A DNA stretch of 22,061 bases from Planctomycetota bacterium (GTDB lineage Bacteria; Planctomycetota; B15-G4; JADJEK01), in assembly GCA_044225365.1 (NCBI GenBank), contig JBGAIQ010000078.1, forward strand, positions 1-22,061, given 5' to 3'. Position numbers and translations under genes: made by a program. This document shows, one piece after another, positions 1 to 6,541 of this stretch. Position 1 is the stretch's first letter; each line of letters begins with the position of its first letter. The notes beneath the pieces were generated by a model. The model made no database searches. It saw only the letters and a list, made by a program, of their open reading frames with translations, and was not told the origin of the DNA.

Positions 1-155
1 GTCACGAAGAGGACGAGGCGCTTCACGACGAGGTCGTCCTGCTGGCACACCGCGACGGTGGGTCGCCAGCGATCGAAGCGAGCGGGCCCGAATCCCCCGT
101 CGAGCGTGGTGCCGAGGAATCCGAAGACGGTGACGCCGTGATGGGACTTAGCCAT
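1..155 (-). CDS. rtcR: RtcR, sigma54-dependent RNA-repair transcriptional activator (N-terminal CARF region; partial, continues beyond position 1)
   Basis: Manual translation from the ATG at 155 gives MAKSHHGVTVFGFLGTTLDGGFGPARFDRWRPTVAVCQQDDLVVKRLVLFV. This matches the RtcR N-terminal pattern (FGFxGTxLD...RWRPTxxxCQQ). It is divergent from rtcB/rtcA as in known rtc loci. Absent from the ORF track. Confidence 0.93.
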   Translation of the reverse strand, partial: MAKSHHGVTVFGFLGTTLDGGFGPARFDRWRPTVAVCQQDDLVVKRLVLFV

Positions 156-166
156 GGGGATCAAAA

Positions 167-180
167 CTATCCGATAGGAT
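167..180. promoter_or_regulatory. Putative RtcR upstream activator site (overlapping inverted repeats)
   Basis: CTATCCGATAGGAT contains CTATC-C-GATAG (167-177) and ATCC-GATA-GGAT (169-180). It lies about 105-115 bp upstream of the -24 element, a typical enhancer distance. Assignment to RtcR is inferred. Confidence 0.45.
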
Positions 181-281
181 CGAATACGGGAAGAGTTCGC
201 GCGGTCGTCGATTCGCCAAATTCCGTCGCAAGCCAATTATGTTGATGTGGTTGTGTTTCGCGAGACGAGTCCGGCACCTCG

Positions 282-367: not shown

Positions 368-1975
368 ATGGTGAATCGAACCCTTTTCTCGTCGCTTCTC
401 ACGCGCCTCTTCCCCGCGAGCGACGCGGTGAACGAGGCGGGCGGCAGCGCTTACCGCTTCACGGACGAACACGCGCTCGCGCAACTCGCGGTGACCGGGT
501 GTCTGAACCAGACCTACTACGCGGATGCAGGGGCTCAGCTCTCCGCGGTGCGTTCGCTCGTCGCGAAGGTCACTCCCGAGTTCGTCGGCAAGACCGCCAT
601 CTACGCGAGGGAACGCGGATCCATGAAGGACATGCCGGCGCTGCTCCTCGCCGCGCTCGCATCGCCCTCATCGAATGGGGCGGCTGGCTCAGTCCTCGAG
701 CAAGTGTTCTTCCGCGTTGCGAACGACGGCCGGATGATCCGCAGCTTCGTGCAGATCCTGCGGTCGGGCGCGATGGGTCGTCGCTCGCTCGGCTCGCGGC
801 CGAAGCGACTGGTCCGTCGTTACCTCGAATCCGCAGCGCCCGAAGTCCTCTTTTTCGCCGCGATCGGCAACACACCTTCGCTCTCGGACGTGATCAAGAT
901 GGTCCATCCGCGTCCTGCTGACGCGACGCGCGCGGCGCTCTTCGGGTATCTCGTCGATCGAGATCACGATGAGGCGGCGCTTCCCGAGATCGTGCGCGAG
1001 TACGAAGAGTTCAAGCGGGGCGCGTCGAAGGTGCCGGATGTTCCATTCCGCTATCTCACGAACCTGAAACTGTCGACCGCGACGTGGACGGCGATCGCGC
1101 GCAACGCGTCTTGGACGACGGTGCGAATGAACCTGAACACGTTCCTTCGCCATGGCGTCCTTGCGAACGAATCGGTCGTCCGCGAACTCGCGGCGAAGCT
1201 GCGCGATGGGCGCGAAATTCGACGGGCGAGAGCTCTCCCATACCAGATCCTCGTGGCGCTTCGAAACGTGGATCGTGGTGTACCGGCGGAGTTGCGATCG
1301 GCCCTGCACGATGCCCTCGAGATCGCGACGGCGAACGTGCCAGCGATGACGAAGAAGATCGCGGTGGCGATCGACGTCTCGGGCTCGATGGCTTCGCCGC
1401 TGACCGGCGTTCGAAAGGGTGCGACTTCACAGGTCCGCTGCGTCGACGCCGCGGCGCTCTTCGCTGCCTCGATCGTTCGGAAGAACCCGTCGGCGAGCGT
1501 CGTCGCGTTCTCGACCGAGGCGCGTCGCGTCGCACTCGAACCGAAGGACACGATCGCGACGAACACGACGCGGATCAGTTCGCTTCTCGGTGGCGGCACG
1601 AGCGTGAGTTCCGCGCTCGGGCTGCTGAACGCGGAGCGCGAAGCGCCGGACCTCGTCGTGATCTTCTCGGACAATCAGTCGTGGGTCGACACGCGCACGA
1701 GCGGAGCGACGGCGCTGCTCGAGGAGTGGAGTCGCCTGAAGCGTGCGAATCGAAGTGCGCGTCTCGTGCTCGTCGATCTGCAGCCGTACACGACGACCCA
1801 GGCCTTGGATCGCGTCGACGTGATGAACGTCGGCGGGTTCTCCGATTCGGTGTTCACCGTGATCGCCGAGTTCGGAAGCGGGCGAGTGGATGGCCTCGTG
1901 AAGCGAATCGAGGCCGTCGACCTGGACCGCAAGGTGAGCCCTTCCACCGTGAACGTAGAAGTGAAGAACGAATGA
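368..1975 (+). CDS. rsr: Ro60/Rsr-like TROVE-domain RNA-binding protein with C-terminal vWA domain (535 aa)
   Basis: N-terminal NEAGGSAY...HALAQLAVTGCLNQTYYA, KMVHPRP and RMNLNTFLRHGV motifs; MIDAS residues DVSGSM, GGGT, SDNQ. Start moved from 239 to the ATG at 368, because the longer ORF would run through the sigma54 promoter. Confidence 0.92.
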   Translation: MVNRTLFSSLLTRLFPASDAVNEAGGSAYRFTDEHALAQLAVTGCLNQTYYADAGAQLSAVRSLVAKVTPEFVGKTAIYARERGSMKDMPALLLAALASPSSNGAAGSVLEQVFFRVANDGRMIRSFVQILRSGAMGRRSLGSRPKRLVRRYLESAAPEVLFFAAIGNTPSLSDVIKMVHPRPADATRAALFGYLVDRDHDEAALPEIVREYEEFKRGASKVPDVPFRYLTNLKLSTATWTAIARNASWTTVRMNLNTFLRHGVLANESVVRELAAKLRDGREIRRARALPYQILVALRNVDRGVPAELRSALHDALEIATANVPAMTKKIAVAIDVSGSMASPLTGVRKGATSQVRCVDAAALFAASIVRKNPSASVVAFSTEARRVALEPKDTIATNTTRISSLLGGGTSVSSALGLLNAEREAPDLVVIFSDNQSWVDTRTSGATALLEEWSRLKRANRSARLVLVDLQPYTTTQALDRVDVMNVGGFSDSVFTVIAEFGSGRVDGLVKRIEAVDLDRKVSPSTVNVEVKNE

Positions 1976-2106
1976 GAGCGGGTTCGGCGGATGCCGTCGG
2001 GACTCCATGGGCAAACCGGGGCAACCCGGGATCGGGTTCGAATCCCGAGGCTCGCCGCGAGGCGAGTCGTGTCCCGCAATTCCTTGCCGCCGAATCCGCT
2101 CTGTTT
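1975..2106 (+). ncRNA. Y RNA-like (YrlA-related) structured ncRNA
   Basis: 16-bp terminal stem 1975-1990/2087-2102 (one G-U) followed by GTTTT. Inner stem CGGGAC 1998-2003/GTCCCG 2071-2076. GCAA hairpin 2016-2029. T arm TCGGG-TTCGAAT-CCCGA 2032-2048. 8-bp GCGA-capped hairpin 2049-2068. Located between Ro60 and rtcB, where Salmonella carries yrlB/yrlA. Exact ends uncertain. Confidence 0.82.
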
Positions 2107-2130: not shown

Positions 2131-2172
2131 GGCCGGACGGCGGGCGAATGCCTCGTCGCCCGTCGTCCGGCC
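2131..2172 (+). ncRNA. 17-bp hairpin carrying a Ro60-binding-type motif (mini Y RNA or cis element in the rtcB leader)
   Basis: GGCCGGACGGCGGGCGA (2131-2147) pairs with TCGCCCGTCGTCCGGCC (2156-2172), one G-U, 8-nt loop. It contains GGCGAATG (2143-2150), matching the bacterial Y RNA motif GNCGAAN(0-1)G. The hairpin is directly visible; its function is inferred. Confidence 0.55.
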
Positions 2173-2191: not shown

Positions 2192-3415
2192 ATGACGCAG
2201 TACATCGAGATCGAAACGGCCAACGTGCCGATCAAGGCCTGGATCCAGGGTGTCGAAGCCGACCCCAACGCAATCCAGCAACTTCGAAACGTGGCGAGCT
2301 TGCCCATCGTGCACTCGCACGTGGCCGCGATGCCGGACGTCCACTTCGGGATCGGCGCGACGGTGGGCAGCGTCATCCCGACGAAGCGGGCGATCATCCC
2401 GGCCGCTGTGGGAGTCGACATCGGTTGCGGCATGATGGCGGTGAAGACGTCGCTGCGCGCGGAGGATCTGCCCGACGACCTGAAGGCGATCCGCTCCGCC
2501 ATCGAGGCGGCCGTGCCGCATGGGCGCACCGATCAGGGCGGTCGCAACGACAAGGGCTCGTGGCGTTCCGAGCTGCCGGCGCGCGTCGCGGCGGCGTGGA
2601 AGCTGCTCGAGAAGGACCAGCGTCGCATCGTCGAGAAGCACAAGAAGCTCGACGCCGGCCGCAGCGCGGGCCAGCTCGGTACGCTCGGCAGCGGCAATCA
2701 CTTCATCGAGATGTGTCTCGACGAGAGCGGAAGCGTGTGGATCGTGCTGCATTCCGGCTCGCGCGGAATCGGCAACAAGATCGGCACGCACTTCATCGCT
2801 CTCGCGAAGAAGGACATGGGCCGTCAAGTGGCGAACCTTCCGGATCGCGATCTCGCGTATCTCGAGGAGGGCAGCGCGCACTTCGACGACTACGTCTTCG
2901 CGGTCGACTGGGCGCAGCGCTATGCGCGGCAGAATCGCGAGATCATGATGGCGCACGTGCTCGAAGCGCTCGCGCTGCGCGAGGAGCTGCCGCACTTCAC
3001 GACCGGCGAGATCGCGGTGAACTGTCACCACAACTACGTGCAGCTCGAGCGGCACTTCGGCGAAGACGTGTTCGTCACCCGCAAGGGCGCCGTGCGAGCC
3101 GGCGCGGGCGAACTCGGCATCATCCCGGGATCGATGGGCGCGCGCACCTACATCGTGCGCGGCCTCGGCAATCCCGACAGCTACGAGTCATGCAGCCACG
3201 GCGCAGGGCGCGTGCTCTCGCGCAGCGAGGCGAAGCGGCGCTACAGCGTGGAGGACCACGTGGCCGCCACGGCCGGCGTCGAGTGTCGCAAGGACTCCGG
3301 TGTCCTCGACGAGACCCCGATGGCCTACAAGGACATCGACAAGGTGATGGAGGCGCAGAAGGATCTGGTCGACGTCGTCCACACGCTGAAGCAGGTCGTA
3401 TGCGTGAAGGGGTAA
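2192..3415 (+). CDS. rtcB: RtcB 3'-phosphate/5'-OH RNA ligase (407 aa)
   Basis: Motifs MPDVHFGIGATVG, VGVDIGCGM, GTLGSGNHF, HSGSRG, NCHHNY, RKGA, IPGSMG, SCSHGAGR (guanylylated His) and DETPMAYKDI. Start set at the ATG at 2192; the 1991 extension runs through the ncRNA. Confidence 0.97.
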   Translation: MTQYIEIETANVPIKAWIQGVEADPNAIQQLRNVASLPIVHSHVAAMPDVHFGIGATVGSVIPTKRAIIPAAVGVDIGCGMMAVKTSLRAEDLPDDLKAIRSAIEAAVPHGRTDQGGRNDKGSWRSELPARVAAAWKLLEKDQRRIVEKHKKLDAGRSAGQLGTLGSGNHFIEMCLDESGSVWIVLHSGSRGIGNKIGTHFIALAKKDMGRQVANLPDRDLAYLEEGSAHFDDYVFAVDWAQRYARQNREIMMAHVLEALALREELPHFTTGEIAVNCHHNYVQLERHFGEDVFVTRKGAVRAGAGELGIIPGSMGARTYIVRGLGNPDSYESCSHGAGRVLSRSEAKRRYSVEDHVAATAGVECRKDSGVLDETPMAYKDIDKVMEAQKDLVDVVHTLKQVVCVKG

Positions 3416-3466
3416 CGAGATCGTTTGCGTTCGAGCCCGGTTCGAAGGGCTTGCGGAGTTGCGGTC

Positions 3467-4495
3467 ATGATCGTGATCGATGGTTCGGAGGGCGAGGGTG
3501 GCGGACAGGTGTTGAGATCCTGTCTTTCCCTCGCCCTCCTGACGGGGCGCGAGTTCCACATTCATTCCATTCGTGGCAGGCGCGAGAAGCCGGGATTGAA
3601 GCGACAGCATCTCGTCTGCATCGAGGCTGCGGCGGCGATCGGAACTGCACGCGTCGATGGCGCGAGCGTCGATTCGCGAGAAGTTGTGTTCCGACCGGGG
3701 AAGGTACGGGGCGGCGTTCACCACTTCCCGATCGGCACCGCGGGAAGCACGTCGCTCGTGCTCCAGACCCTGCTCCTGCCTTTGCTCCTCGCCAACGAGC
3801 CGTCGACGCTGGCGATCGAGGGTGGCACGCACAATCCGCTCGCGCCGCCCTATCCCTTCCTCGAGCAGACCTTCCTCCCGATCCTCCGGAAGATGGGCGC
3901 TCGGGTCGCGACGAAGCTCGTGCGGCCTGGGTTCTTCCCGGCGGGAGGTGGCAGGATCGAGGTCGCGATCGAGCCGTCGACGCTGGCGTCGATCGATCTC
4001 GTCGAGCGCGGCGAATGGCGGATCGAGCGGGCGCTCGCCTACGTCGCGAACCTTCCGCTGTCGATCGCGGAACGTGAGCTCGCGGCGATCCGAAAGCGCC
4101 TCGCGATCGATCGTTCGTCGTGTCACGTCGAAGCCACTCGGGAGACGCCGTCGCCCGGGAACTTCGTCACGATCGACGTACGGACCTCGAGTCACGTCGA
4201 GGTGTTCACCGGGTTCGGTGAACGCAGGAAGAGCGCAGAGTGGGTGGCGAACGAAGCCGTCGACCAGGTTCGTGCTTTTCTCGGGACCGGCGTCCCGGTC
4301 TCCGAGCACCTCGCCGATCAACTGCTCCTGCCCTTCGCGGTCGCGGGCGGGGGGAGCTTCCTCTGCGGAGAGCCGAGCGAGCACGCGCGGACGAACGCTG
4401 CGATGATCGAACGCTTCCTTCCCGTGCGCATCTCGTTCGATCGCGACGAGTCGACGCCGTTGCCGATCCATCGCTGCCGCGTCGTGCGGTCCTGA
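3467..4495 (+). CDS. rtcA: RtcA RNA 3'-terminal phosphate cyclase (342 aa)
   Basis: MIVIDGSEGEGGGQVLR, PGLKRQHL, GGTHN..APP, GFFPAGGG, HLADQL and SEHARTN (adenylylated His position). GGAG at 3455-3458 precedes the ATG at 3467. Confidence 0.96.
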   Translation: MIVIDGSEGEGGGQVLRSCLSLALLTGREFHIHSIRGRREKPGLKRQHLVCIEAAAAIGTARVDGASVDSREVVFRPGKVRGGVHHFPIGTAGSTSLVLQTLLLPLLLANEPSTLAIEGGTHNPLAPPYPFLEQTFLPILRKMGARVATKLVRPGFFPAGGGRIEVAIEPSTLASIDLVERGEWRIERALAYVANLPLSIAERELAAIRKRLAIDRSSCHVEATRETPSPGNFVTIDVRTSSHVEVFTGFGERRKSAEWVANEAVDQVRAFLGTGVPVSEHLADQLLLPFAVAGGGSFLCGEPSEHARTNAAMIERFLPVRISFDRDESTPLPIHRCRVVRS

Positions 4496-6541
4496 TCAGC
4501 GGGGGTAGAGGACGAGTCGCCCGAGCGATGCATCCTCGACGCGTCGGAAGCGGGAGAGGAACGGCTCGCCGAGCACGCCTTCCGCATAGGGGGCCGCGTA
4601 GCCGTCGACGACCACCGCCGGCACTCGCGCCGTCGACACGTTGCCGATCACGATCGATGCGAGTTGCACCGTCGGTACCTCGGGCTGCTGCGGATCGGTG
4701 TGGAACTTGATGCGCGGGAGGCTCGGCAACGAGTAACCCGCGCCGACGACGGCGGACGCAGGGAGGACGCTCGTCTTCTCCGTGGGGTCGAGCAGGAGAT
4801 TCACCGACACCGATCCGTTGATGCGCGCCGACACGACGAGTCGAGTGTCGCCGGGCTGGAAGTCGATGACGATCGCGCCCGGACCGCCGGCGAGATCGCG
4901 CGCCCGGTCCGCCTTCACCCGCATCTCCCCAGCGACCTTGGGATCGACGAGTGCCGCTTCGCCGAAGATCTGCGCCGCTTCCTCGAAGCGGCGCGCTTCC
5001 ATGAGGTAGTCGCCCGCCCGAGCGCGCAGGAGCGCATTGCTCGGGAAGAAGCGGCGCTGCTCGAGGAGCAGCTGGATCGCGTCGTTCACGAGTCCTTGCG
5101 CCTTGCGCTGCGCGGCGCCCTCGATGAGCAGTCCCGCGCCCTCGCGCAGGAGTTCGTCTCGCTTCATCGGGTTCTTCACGGCAGCGGTGTTGAAACAGGC
5201 GATCGCACTGACGAGGTCGCCGGTCGCGGCCAGAGCGCGACCCTTCGCGGTCCACAGCTCCGCATCCTCGGGCAATCGCTGTAGCACCTCGGTGAGGATC
5301 GCATTCGCATTCGCCGCGGTGCCGTTCGCGAGCGCATCGCGCGCGATCTCGAGCGTTGCGGAGGAGAGATCCGTCGCCACGTCGGGGAGGAGGCGCGGCT
5401 CCTCGGCGGTGAGCGCGAGCATGAGCCTTACCGCTTCCTCGAACTGTCGAGCGTCGATCAACTGGCGCACGCGCTTCAGTCGAGCCGCGGGCGCACCGGG
5501 TCCTGAACTCCGCAGGAAGAACTCGAGGGGGACGGCGGCGTTGCCGAGCTTTGCGAGCGGCGCTGCCGGATAGGTCGGGAGTGAGTCGGTGCCCTTCTTC
5601 GATTGGAGTGCGAAGACGCGCCCTTCCGCATCGATGGCGACGCCACGGAACTTCGGCTCGGGTTCAGGGCCGTATCGCGGCCCGCCGCTGATTCGATCGA
5701 TCCGTCCGGGCTGGAGTTTGCCCGTGGCTTCCCTCCACTTGCTGTCGTCGACCGGACCGAGCCAAGTGACGTCGACCGGACCCCCGATCGGTGCGTACGG
5801 GATCTCGAGCGCTTTGAACGGCTTCGCCGTCGTCACTTCGAGCAGGGAGAGATCGAACGCCGCGTCCTGCCCCGCGACTCCCGTCACGGGGAGTTCGACG
5901 CCGCTCGCATCCACGACGACGAGGGAGGCAGCGCCGGCCAGCACTCCGAGCGTCGCAACGACCCGCTTCTCGCCACAGGCGAAGCAAGGTGCTTCGTCGA
6001 GTTCCGCGCCGCTCTCGTCGCGCGCGATCACACGCAGGATCGAGGGACCAAAGCGCGCTCGTAGTCCGGCGGGCGTCGTGTCGAGCGGTTCCGTGGGAAC
6101 CGGCGCGGGTTCGGGGAGCTTCACTTCCTCGCGGACCGGCGCGGTCGGAACATCGGTTTGGGGGACGTAGACCACCTGTGGCTTCTCGGCGACCTTGCGC
6201 TCGAGTTCGGCGATCATCGCGCGGAGCCTTTGGAGGTCGGCAGCTTCGTTCTCGAGGGCATCGATCCGCGACGTCACGAAGTGAACCGTCGCCGCGCCGC
6301 CGACGAGCACTCCCACGAGCAGGCCGACGACGAGGATCGCGATCCACGGCGCGCCATGCCCATCGCGTTGACTCTTCGGCACGTCCTGTTTCGCCCCGCA
6401 GCGATCGCAGTAGACGGCGTCGTCCCGGATCGCCTCGAGGCAGTTGCGACAACGTTGCAATTCGTGCTTGCCGAGCGGCGGCTTGTCGTCGCCGACCGGA
6501 GCGACCGGTCCGAACAATGGGACGGAATCGTCGTCGTCCAT
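4496..6541 (-). CDS. Membrane-anchored protein: zinc ribbon, TM helix, coiled coil, degenerate trypsin-like domain, TPR repeats, C-terminal retropepsin-like domain (681 aa)
   Basis: CRNC...CDRC; hydrophobic WIAILVVGLLVGVLVGG; DLSLL and IDAEGRV trypsin-like scaffold; TPR-like helices (LPEDAELWTAKGRAL, FPSNALLRARAGDYL); VSARING..LLLDPT..GVLGEPFLSRF aspartyl-protease-like C terminus. Confidence 0.7.
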   Translation of the reverse strand: MDDDDSVPLFGPVAPVGDDKPPLGKHELQRCRNCLEAIRDDAVYCDRCGAKQDVPKSQRDGHGAPWIAILVVGLLVGVLVGGAATVHFVTSRIDALENEAADLQRLRAMIAELERKVAEKPQVVYVPQTDVPTAPVREEVKLPEPAPVPTEPLDTTPAGLRARFGPSILRVIARDESGAELDEAPCFACGEKRVVATLGVLAGAASLVVVDASGVELPVTGVAGQDAAFDLSLLEVTTAKPFKALEIPYAPIGGPVDVTWLGPVDDSKWREATGKLQPGRIDRISGGPRYGPEPEPKFRGVAIDAEGRVFALQSKKGTDSLPTYPAAPLAKLGNAAVPLEFFLRSSGPGAPAARLKRVRQLIDARQFEEAVRLMLALTAEEPRLLPDVATDLSSATLEIARDALANGTAANANAILTEVLQRLPEDAELWTAKGRALAATGDLVSAIACFNTAAVKNPMKRDELLREGAGLLIEGAAQRKAQGLVNDAIQLLLEQRRFFPSNALLRARAGDYLMEARRFEEAAQIFGEAALVDPKVAGEMRVKADRARDLAGGPGAIVIDFQPGDTRLVVSARINGSVSVNLLLDPTEKTSVLPASAVVGAGYSLPSLPRIKFHTDPQQPEVPTVQLASIVIGNVSTARVPAVVVDGYAAPYAEGVLGEPFLSRFRRVEDASLGRLVLYPR

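Follow-up and report, generated by a model that had tools for sequence, protein, structure and literature searches.

A stretch of 22,061 nucleotides (nt) of contig JBGAIQ010000078.1 of a Planctomycetota bacterium (GenBank assembly GCA_044225365.1; positions 1 to 22,061, forward strand), hereafter the window, carries near its beginning an RNA element that is likely a bacterial Y RNA with a transfer RNA (tRNA)-like module devoid of a D arm. The element (1975-2102, plus strand) lies in the gene order rtcR, rsr, RNA, rtcB, rtcA, with rtcR divergent from rsr, and its 5' end coincides with the stop codon of rsr, which is read on the same strand. The rsr gene (368-1975, plus strand) encodes a protein with the Pfam domains vWA_Ro60 (62.7 bits) and TROVE (23.6 bits), which matches the Rsr structure PDB 2nvo (E 2.7e-23, residues 20-507) and the NCBIfam Rsr model (92 bits, under the equivalog cut-off of 900); judged by these matches, it is a full-length Ro60/Rsr orthologue. 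The open frame begins at 239, and since homologues align only from about residue 42, the true start is probably the ATG at 368. Downstream follow the RNA ligase gene rtcB (2192-3415, plus strand; Pfam RtcB, 434 bits) and the RNA 3'-phosphate cyclase gene rtcA (3425-4495, plus strand; Pfam RTC, 241 bits; NCBIfam, 414 bits). Upstream, the N-terminal part of rtcR (3-236, minus strand; Pfam PF06956 RtcR, 48.7 bits, E 7.9e-13), truncated by the contig start, belongs to a CARF-type regulator; inspection by eye around 271-287 revealed only an imperfect match to a sigma-54 promoter. Directly after rtcA, on the opposite strand, lies a gene (4496-6541) for a 681-residue protein that combines TPR repeats with a retropepsin-like aspartyl protease domain at its C-terminus. 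The organisation of the locus is the same as that described for the rsr-yrlBA-rtcBA RNA-repair operon of Salmonella (PMC7790460).

The element is predicted to fold into a long stem that carries a set of small hairpins at its distal end. Its minimum free energy of -76.6 kcal/mol compares with -58.65 +/- 4.32 for 200 dinucleotide shuffles (z -4.16; 0/200 as stable), whereas the minus strand folds worse (z -3.63) and gives no T-loop consensus. All parts are read on the plus strand: a closing stem of 16 base pairs (bp) between 1975-1990 and 2087-2102, of which bases 1986-1990 open the Rsr-site motif GGCGGAUGCC (1986-1995); a 7-nt/10-nt internal loop, where GGCGGATGCC (1986-1995) faces CCTTGCCGCC (2082-2091); an inner stem of 6 bp between 1998-2003 and 2071-2076, also found by RNAalifold on a MAFFT alignment; an unpaired 12-nt linker, UCCAUGGGCAAA (2004-2015; CCATGGGCAAA from 2005), which holds a conserved motif of the ACA(U) type and a GG; a 5-bp hairpin with a GCAA loop (2016-2029); a T arm (2032-2048) with a 5-bp stem and the loop UUCGAAU; and, 0 nt after it, a GCGA-capped 8-bp hairpin (2049-2068), the closed analogue of an acceptor stem. 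Just two nucleotides, GU (2069-2070), stand between this hairpin and the 3' strand of the inner stem, in the place of a D arm. An earlier reading of the letters without database searches (the sequence-only reading) had listed the same elements at the same coordinates, and its drawing, including the missing D arm, was reproduced base for base by sequence and minimum-free-energy fold. It had called the GNRA-capped hairpin extra; according to Chen et al. 2014 (PMC4201824), this is the position of the optional V arm of YrlA or of the 'anticodon arm' of Yrn1, and the hairpin is not extra. It had also listed GCCGAA on the 3' strand (2089-2094), which is not the Rsr-site motif; the alignment of homologues places the family-wide conserved motif on the 5' strand, as GGCGGAUG in the window and GNCGAAUG in the homologues. 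The pair beside the internal loop is A-U in 106 and G-C in 3 of 113 aligned matches and G1990-C2087 in the window; by this comparison, GGCGGAUG is a variant of GNCGAAUG in which G-C has replaced A-U through compensated changes.

Rfam 15 gives no match in the whole window when its gathering thresholds are applied. The best permissive match is the YrlA model RF02553, covered in full length (1-114 of 114) with 33.1 bits (E 1.3e-05; cut-off 69) in an alignment that is out of register: the GCAA hairpin falls on the T arm of the model, the T arm on its acceptor stem (AS) and the GCGA hairpin on its D arm. The Deinococcus Y RNA model RF01053 scores 17.8 bits (E 1.1; cut-off 80), and in this alignment, CAUGGGC, GCAA hairpin and T arm follow one another as they do in the model. 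Weaker tRNA-like matches are mascRNA (21.1 bits) and tRNA-Sec (15.3 bits, E 2.4); ARAGORN finds no tRNA or transfer-messenger RNA (tmRNA) gene in the window, and no tRNA family of Rfam matches at gathering level. An identity as tRNA was rejected: a cloverleaf with anticodon loop and open acceptor end is missing, and ARAGORN counts no gene. The novelty claimed in the sequence-only reading was thus not undone by a strong full-length match to YrlA.

Homologues had to be sought through the Rsr protein, because blastn of the RNA against 40 relatives returned only a 26-nt T-arm match in one genome. With the window rsr as query, the gene was found just once among 40 genomes from the same family or order (of the 41 scored genomes, the own one included, 19 are at least 90% complete), while the closest Rsr homologues, ~50% identical, are scattered over many phyla; this combination suggests that the whole cassette of rsr and Y RNA has spread horizontally. 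A second, partial rsr copy (G000:C62:25216-25731; L086), 90% identical over residues 1-172, stops at a contig end and may be a paralogue or stem from a co-binned strain. The 80 rsr loci at ~50% identity that served as relatives span Planctomycetota, Verrucomicrobiota, Myxococcota, Acidobacteriota, Alpha- and Gammaproteobacteria and others. A T-loop motif scan marked 202 sites in 81 sequences (the 80 loci, numbered with L below, and L002, the window's own region), and ARAGORN, applied to 60 of the 80 loci, detected tRNAs in only seven. A covariance model, R1, built from the window RNA alone with the structure of the sequence-only reading, yielded 136 matches at E <= 1 in the window and the 80 loci, 134 on the rsr strand and two as reverse-strand echoes, nearly all just 3' of rsr; in the available stretch around the partial copy L086, it found no Y RNA. 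In other loci, the units form tandem arrays of 2-5 at varying distance from rsr, and the next gene is sometimes not rtcB.

Pair counts were taken over 113 matches at E <= 0.3 in the model-based alignment, because the MAFFT alignment A1 was not sufficiently in register for this purpose. In these 113 rows, 94.1% of the cells hold a standard pair, as opposed to 65.9% in shuffles (0/500 as high) and 39-55% with the partners slid by 1-3 columns; double changes occur in 39 of 40 pairs, and all five helices are supported, each being 90-99% paired. The individual values are 92.3% for the closing stem (double changes in 16/16 pairs), 97.5% for the inner stem (5/6), 89.6% for the GCAA hairpin (5/5), which is absent from many rows, 98.8% for the T arm and 90.7% for the 8-bp acceptor-like hairpin (8/8), at whose position relatives have hairpins of unrelated sequence. 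As a check that is not fitted to R1, 13 D-arm-less units were aligned by plain MAFFT, and RNAalifold recovered from them the closing stem, an inner stem of 8 bp and the T arm, with double changes in 19 of 24 pairs; the two variable hairpins were lost to indels. Taken with the locus, the Rsr-site stem and the weak full-length YrlA match, this covariation argues that the element is probably a genuine Rsr-binding Y RNA, as had been proposed.

DNA contigs from three other studies, 95-99% identical to the window, keep the Y RNA. The sole change inside it, 2022 C>T, turns the GCAA loop into GUAA, which is still of the GNRA type; one more change lies just beyond the stem, at 2104. In the window, a second element follows at 2131-2172 (plus strand): a perfect 17-bp hairpin (-44.1 kcal/mol, z -4.82), in which the 5' and 3' Rsr-site motifs, GGGCGAAUGCC and CUCGUCGCCC, directly adjoin. 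The near relatives have this element ~100 nt longer, at 2147-2151: one of their contigs aligns in two pieces, separated by 102 nt and sharing a 5-nt overlap at AATGC (2147-2151), and a canonical D arm can be read in a loose contig end at this junction. The junction is also found in the form of the window, in one contig of run X4. The second element is probably a canonical YrlA from which the whole tRNA-like module was deleted between AATGC repeats, either as a real allele or by assembly collapse. A search of the own genome with RF02553, in which 150 of 769 candidates were scored and the window RNA was for this reason missed, gave only a 21.4-bit match on another contig, at a place that R1 does not match; regular expressions applied to the whole assembly found no further unit with Rsr motif and T loop, and the loosest pattern, with 68 mostly chance matches, was dropped. 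Because the module of the second element is deleted, no canonical YrlA was found in the genome, and the D-arm-less RNA is therefore the only intact Y RNA with a T arm found in this 94%-complete assembly.

Most units at the 80 loci are canonical YrlA, with a T arm, a hairpin and then UAGCUCA...GAGC. Among those with Rsr motif, ACA motif and T loop, regular expressions assign 94 units to the canonical class (61 loci), 38 to a D-arm-less class (34 loci) and 2 to a split form, while units with variant T loops are missed. The D-arm-less subtype is defined by the Y RNA frame, a T arm, no half of a D stem on either side and a GG at most 5 nt after ACA(U); the window RNA, which reads UCCAUGGG, falls under this definition. 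A list curated by eye holds 35 D-arm-less units in 35 of the 80 loci, to which the window adds one, and the cells of these 36 rows are paired to 91.6% in the closing stem, 95.8% in the inner stem, 90.9% in the 5' hairpin, 96.3% in the T arm and 93.5% in the acceptor-like hairpin. Several sub-forms occur: some have both hairpins, like the window RNA, some lack either the 5' or the acceptor-like hairpin, and some retain the T arm only. The two classes also differ in sequence. A GG starting at most 5 nt after ACA(U) is found in 33 of 38 D-arm-less but 25 of 94 canonical units, a count taken 5' of the T arm, whereas the groups are defined by features 3' of it. The T-stem 5' strand reads GCGGG or GTGGG in 73/94 canonical and 11/35 D-arm-less units; AGUACA is present in 7/35 D-arm-less and 1/94 canonical units, and the ACUCCA of the window in 3/35 (all of them Myxococcota loci) and 0/94.

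The difference extends to annotation and company. In an Rfam scan of 20 loci at gathering thresholds, 15 canonical units in 13 loci pass the YrlA cut-off with 69.6-80.2 bits, whereas none of the 24 D-arm-less or split units in the same 20 loci reaches the cut-off of any family; the D-arm-less unit of L022, from a Myxococcales metagenome-assembled genome, reaches 13.8 bits with YrlA and has no match to the Deinococcus model. D-arm-less and canonical units stand together in 28 of 31 loci by regular-expression count, and the remaining three also have a canonical unit on inspection (an Rfam YrlA in L012 and L049; T arm, hairpin and D arm at L055:4258). The order is not fixed, with 14 D-arm-less units before the canonical one and 14 after it. 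In genome G021, the sole rsr carrier in the same order as the window's source, rsr is followed by a D-arm-less unit (42 bits) and a canonical YrlA. By its recurrence, the module of the window differs from canonical YrlA as a class and is not a one-off; the distinct module claimed earlier holds in this sense, and the precedents of Yrn1 and YrlB make it less new than proposed. The D-arm-less subtype as such is, judging from these loci, recurrent in rsr loci of several phyla, usually in the company of canonical YrlA.

The same loci harbour further types of unit and neighbour. Y RNA frames with ACAU-(N)-GGGA and no T arm occur at L057:4077-4195, L061:4080-4190, L048:4065-4173 and L004:1923-2022; in three alphaproteobacterial loci, the module is a different, conserved pair of hairpins. 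Minimal Y RNAs, consisting of Rsr stem, inner stem and a small loop (L043:4071-4145, L049:4074-4156, L074:4074-4156, L031:4126-4193, L033:4106-4184), resemble the published YrlB/Yrn2 type and are often the first after rsr. Units in canonical order at L030:5332, L032:5277, L036:4560, L019:4393 and L038:4506 have another type of D-arm sequence (UGGUGUAGAGG... or GGCGCAAUGGCAGCGC) in place of UAGCUCA...GAGC. tRNA genes lie among or beside the arrays in L006, L016, L024, L027, L035 and L051, with seven in L035 and two tRNA-Arg genes directly after rsr in L024. Myxococcus phage Mx1 (L090, record 56915-58564) encodes an Rsr that is 44% identical to that of the window over 97% of its length, near tRNA-Gly and peptidyl-tRNA hydrolase genes; a candidate stem with Rsr motif lies near L090:5187, and R1 has no match within 3 kb of this rsr.

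A group of seven or eight units retains both halves of a D stem, one on either side of the module. On the 5' side, ACAU is followed by GG-(N)-A-GAGC-R, a capped hairpin of 5-7 bp, AGGUC, the T arm and the acceptor-like hairpin; on the 3' side, UA-GCUC-AG precedes the return strand of the inner stem (L015:4196-4342, L019:4200-4337, L030:5979-6104, L033:4225-4358, L054:4404-4532, L065:4403-4546, L018:3529-3664 and perhaps L023 from 4391 onwards). The two stretches match positions 18-26 and 8-15 of the tRNA consensus. The same positions are described in the legend to Figure 2B of Chen et al. 2014 (PMC4201824). Single-sequence folds of L015, L018 and L019 close a GAGC/GCUC helix around the three arms, whereas RNAalifold on seven split-D-arm units gives no such helix and pairs GAGC with the GGUC of the variable loop; for this reason, the idea of a split D stem draws on the kept halves and the single-sequence folds. 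Since the four pairs hardly vary, covariation speaks neither for nor against the helix. If it forms, the arrangement suggests a whole tRNA cloverleaf, opened in the D loop at ~16/17 and joined to the Rsr stem, whereas YrlA is opened at the anticodon loop. The GGGCAAA of the window sits at the position of GGCAGAGCG in L015, and its GU at that of UAGCUCAG; the window RNA looks like the split-D-arm form minus the D stem. The different permutation of the tRNA elbow that the sequence-only reading had envisaged can be upheld through comparison with these split-D-arm relatives only, the docking of the GG staying conjectural.

From these relatives, one may tentatively go a step further, to a proposal that we hold for possible though rather doubtful: the rsr loci of at least six phyla would carry a widespread second family of Y RNAs, whose module is joined to the Ro60-binding stem via the D loop, with full forms in which both halves of the D stem are retained and reduced forms (the window RNA, perhaps Yrn1) that have lost this stem and keep only the GG. 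If true, Yrn1 and YrlA would be linked, contrary to the independent evolution that Chen et al. 2014 (PMC4201824) conclude for the two RNAs. Such a family would also fit an origin from tandem tRNA transcripts, a model for which the preprint 10.1101/312249 cites Sim and Wolin 2018. Moreover, Rsr would sit at the tRNA elbow instead of the anticodon end, with a different geometry and probably different partners from YrlA.

Several points weigh against reading the element as a D-arm-less Y RNA of a defined class. The general trait of Y RNAs, a long stem formed by the ends with GNCGAAN0-1G on its 5' strand, is present with one deviation, as the Rsr-site motif of the window is one base off GNCGAA. 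A scan of 1800-2300 found no promoter-like or terminator-like site next to the RNA, so that a discrete free RNA would need processing from the operon transcript. The 113-row alignment was fitted to the structure of the model itself, mixes canonical and D-arm-less units and includes the minus strand of the window as one row. Class assignment relied on regular expressions and on inspection. It counts as D-arm-less at least 3 units (of 38) with an unusual D arm of the UGGUGUAGAGG type, and it mis-scored the D-arm-less unit of L016 as canonical, because a real tRNA follows it. The 5' hairpin is absent in about half of the D-arm-less units, which makes the architecture of the window one sub-form of several. 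Finally, the Fisher test on the GG counts (p = 2e-10) overstates the evidence, because the sequences are related.

With these points included, we regard the following account of 1975-2102 as likely on the whole. The Y RNA would most likely be cut out of an RtcR-controlled rsr-rtcB-rtcA transcript. Its long terminal stem bears a predicted Rsr (Ro60) site with the 5'-strand motif GGCGGAUG; the terminal stem of Y RNAs is described to bind Rsr through a motif on this strand (PMC4201824; preprint 10.1101/312249). The distal end would be a reduced tRNA-like module, in which the T arm and the 8-bp hairpin presumably stack into a 13-bp helix resembling the acceptor/T helix of a tRNA, with a capped hairpin 5' of the T arm and no D arm. 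The GG of the linker may take the role of G18/G19 of the D loop and cap the T loop, such that the tRNA elbow is kept; for the formation of this elbow by GG docking, the chance appears to us somewhat short of even. The RNA may tether or gate Rsr, in analogy to Yrn1 in Deinococcus, which tethers Rsr to PNPase and may gate it; in YrlA and Yrn1, TruB modifies the T loop (both according to PMC4201824 and preprint 10.1101/312249). A sequence-specific factor has been proposed to act at the conserved stems of the D and T arms of YrlA, and it would presumably not bind the window RNA; because these stem sequences are absent, its partner would be a different one.

The strongest competitor retains an Rsr-binding Y RNA and dispenses with tRNA elbow mimicry: the RNA would be a YrlA minus its D arm, its T arm would act by itself or have no function, and the GG would be kept for some other purpose, such as contact with Rsr or an effector. 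To this alternative we concede a substantial, if minority, share of plausibility. The canonical order V-T-AS-D minus the D arm is exactly the order of the window, no more than 4-6 nt separate the GG from the T stem in some relatives, and in Chen et al. 2014 (PMC4201824), deletion of the T arm of Yrn1 left complex assembly not noticeably changed, and for M. smegmatis YrlB a possible T arm is reported, but no full tRNA-like domain. However, the GG is enriched where the D arm is missing (33/38 versus 25/94), and in the seven or eight split-D-arm relatives the sequence of the linker resembles the 3' half of the D loop and stem of a tRNA.

A decaying, non-functional remnant of YrlA is very unlikely. 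The score under the Rfam cut-off, the erosion visible in the second Y RNA, which has lost its whole module, and the patchy occurrence of rsr among relatives (1/40) would all be compatible with decay; against it stand five intact helices, a T loop of perfect consensus, a compensated change in the Rsr site, conservation in the near-relative contigs and an architecture that recurs and covaries across several phyla (35 or more of the 80 rsr loci), in most cases next to a canonical YrlA that is intact. Most improbable is a cis-acting mRNA element between rsr and rtcB (a stabiliser, an attenuator or a site of processing) or the remnant of a tRNA gene, either of which would never exist as a free RNA: the start at the rsr stop codon, the lack of an own promoter or terminator and the weak mascRNA and tRNA-Sec scores are countered by the negative ARAGORN result, by the conserved Rsr-site stem as the defining feature of Y RNAs, by tandem arrays of 2-5 at varying distance from rsr with rtcB sometimes not the next gene, and by the Y RNAs of Salmonella and Deinococcus, which are likewise described as processed out of polycistronic precursors (PMC4201824).

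Preferring the D-arm-less Y RNA, we see it, from its recurrence, as a subtype of bacterial Y RNAs that has so far gone without annotation. The Rfam model misses it, and the number of Y RNAs per locus is therefore underestimated at present. Both PMC4201824 and preprint 10.1101/312249 treat as open which role the tRNA-like domain of bacterial Y RNAs has and which factor reads it. A second, naturally reduced type of module, devoid of the D arm and of the conserved sequence of the T stem but with a newly conserved GG, bears on this role, and its position beside canonical YrlA offers a built-in comparison: Rsr stem, T loop and acceptor-like helix are shared, whereas the D and T stem sequences are found in YrlA only. 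The split-D-arm relatives in turn bear on the origin of Y RNAs from tRNAs and on whether Yrn1 and YrlA are indeed separate inventions. Full-text searches of the literature returned, apart from passing mentions, only the two YrlA papers and the operon paper, and gave no account of a widespread D-arm-less or split-D-arm class, with the provision that the supplements of Chen et al. 2014 may list some of the units.

Among known systems, circularly permuted tRNAs, tmRNA and viral tRNA-like structures share with the window RNA a T arm and an acceptor-like helix employed outside translation, and a permuted connectivity; the window RNA differs from them by having no free CCA end or anticodon loop and by being joined to a stem that binds Ro60. 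M. smegmatis YrlB and other 'second' Y RNAs, compared here by their published description only, are likewise found in the company of canonical YrlA. For YrlB, Chen et al. 2014 (PMC4201824) mention a possible T arm and no full tRNA-like domain; the published description contains no GG motif, acceptor-like hairpin or distribution, in contrast to what is seen here.

The resemblance to YrlA is more extensive. This comparison draws on RF02553, on Chen et al. 2014, who describe YrlA as an optional V arm followed by T, AS and D arms (PMC4201824), and on the S. Typhimurium structure in the preprint of Wang et al. 2018 (10.1101/312249), as far as the latter two sources describe it. YrlA, too, lies beside rsr on the same strand, in the window's case within an rtcR/rsr/rtcBA operon; both RNAs have a terminal stem with a 5'-strand motif of the GNCGAAUG type, an inner stem followed by an ACUACAU-like element, a T arm of consensus type, optionally preceded by a hairpin, and, directly after it, a closed acceptor-like hairpin. 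In YrlA, however, UA and a D arm of ~17 nt (UA + GCUCA...GAGC) occupy the place that is reduced to 2 nt in the window RNA; the 5' strand of the window's T stem, UCGGG, is not the near-invariant YrlA sequence, a GG is present in the linker, and the score of 33.1 bits remains under the cut-off of 69.

From the published descriptions, M. smegmatis YrlB and D. radiodurans Yrn1 are precedents for Y RNAs that possess a T arm and lack a complete D arm. Chen et al. 2014 (PMC4201824) describe Yrn1 as having no full D arm and as presenting D-loop features, 'anticodon arm' and T arm in opposite orientation; their text reports that no orthologues of Yrn1 were found, and it expects further variants. For our comparison, Yrn1 is represented by the Rfam model RF01053: two patterns derived from its consensus for D. 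radiodurans Yrn1 gave zero and then three matches, the three being unrelated and R1 giving nothing meaningful on them. Window RNA and Yrn1 lack a full D arm and share a GG in a single strand, a short GCAA hairpin and a T arm in the same 5'-to-3' order; the window RNA differs by its YrlA-type Rsr module and by the additional acceptor-like hairpin after the T arm, which is not part of the RF01053 consensus. By this order of elements, the window RNA is closest in layout to the Yrn1 of Deinococcus.

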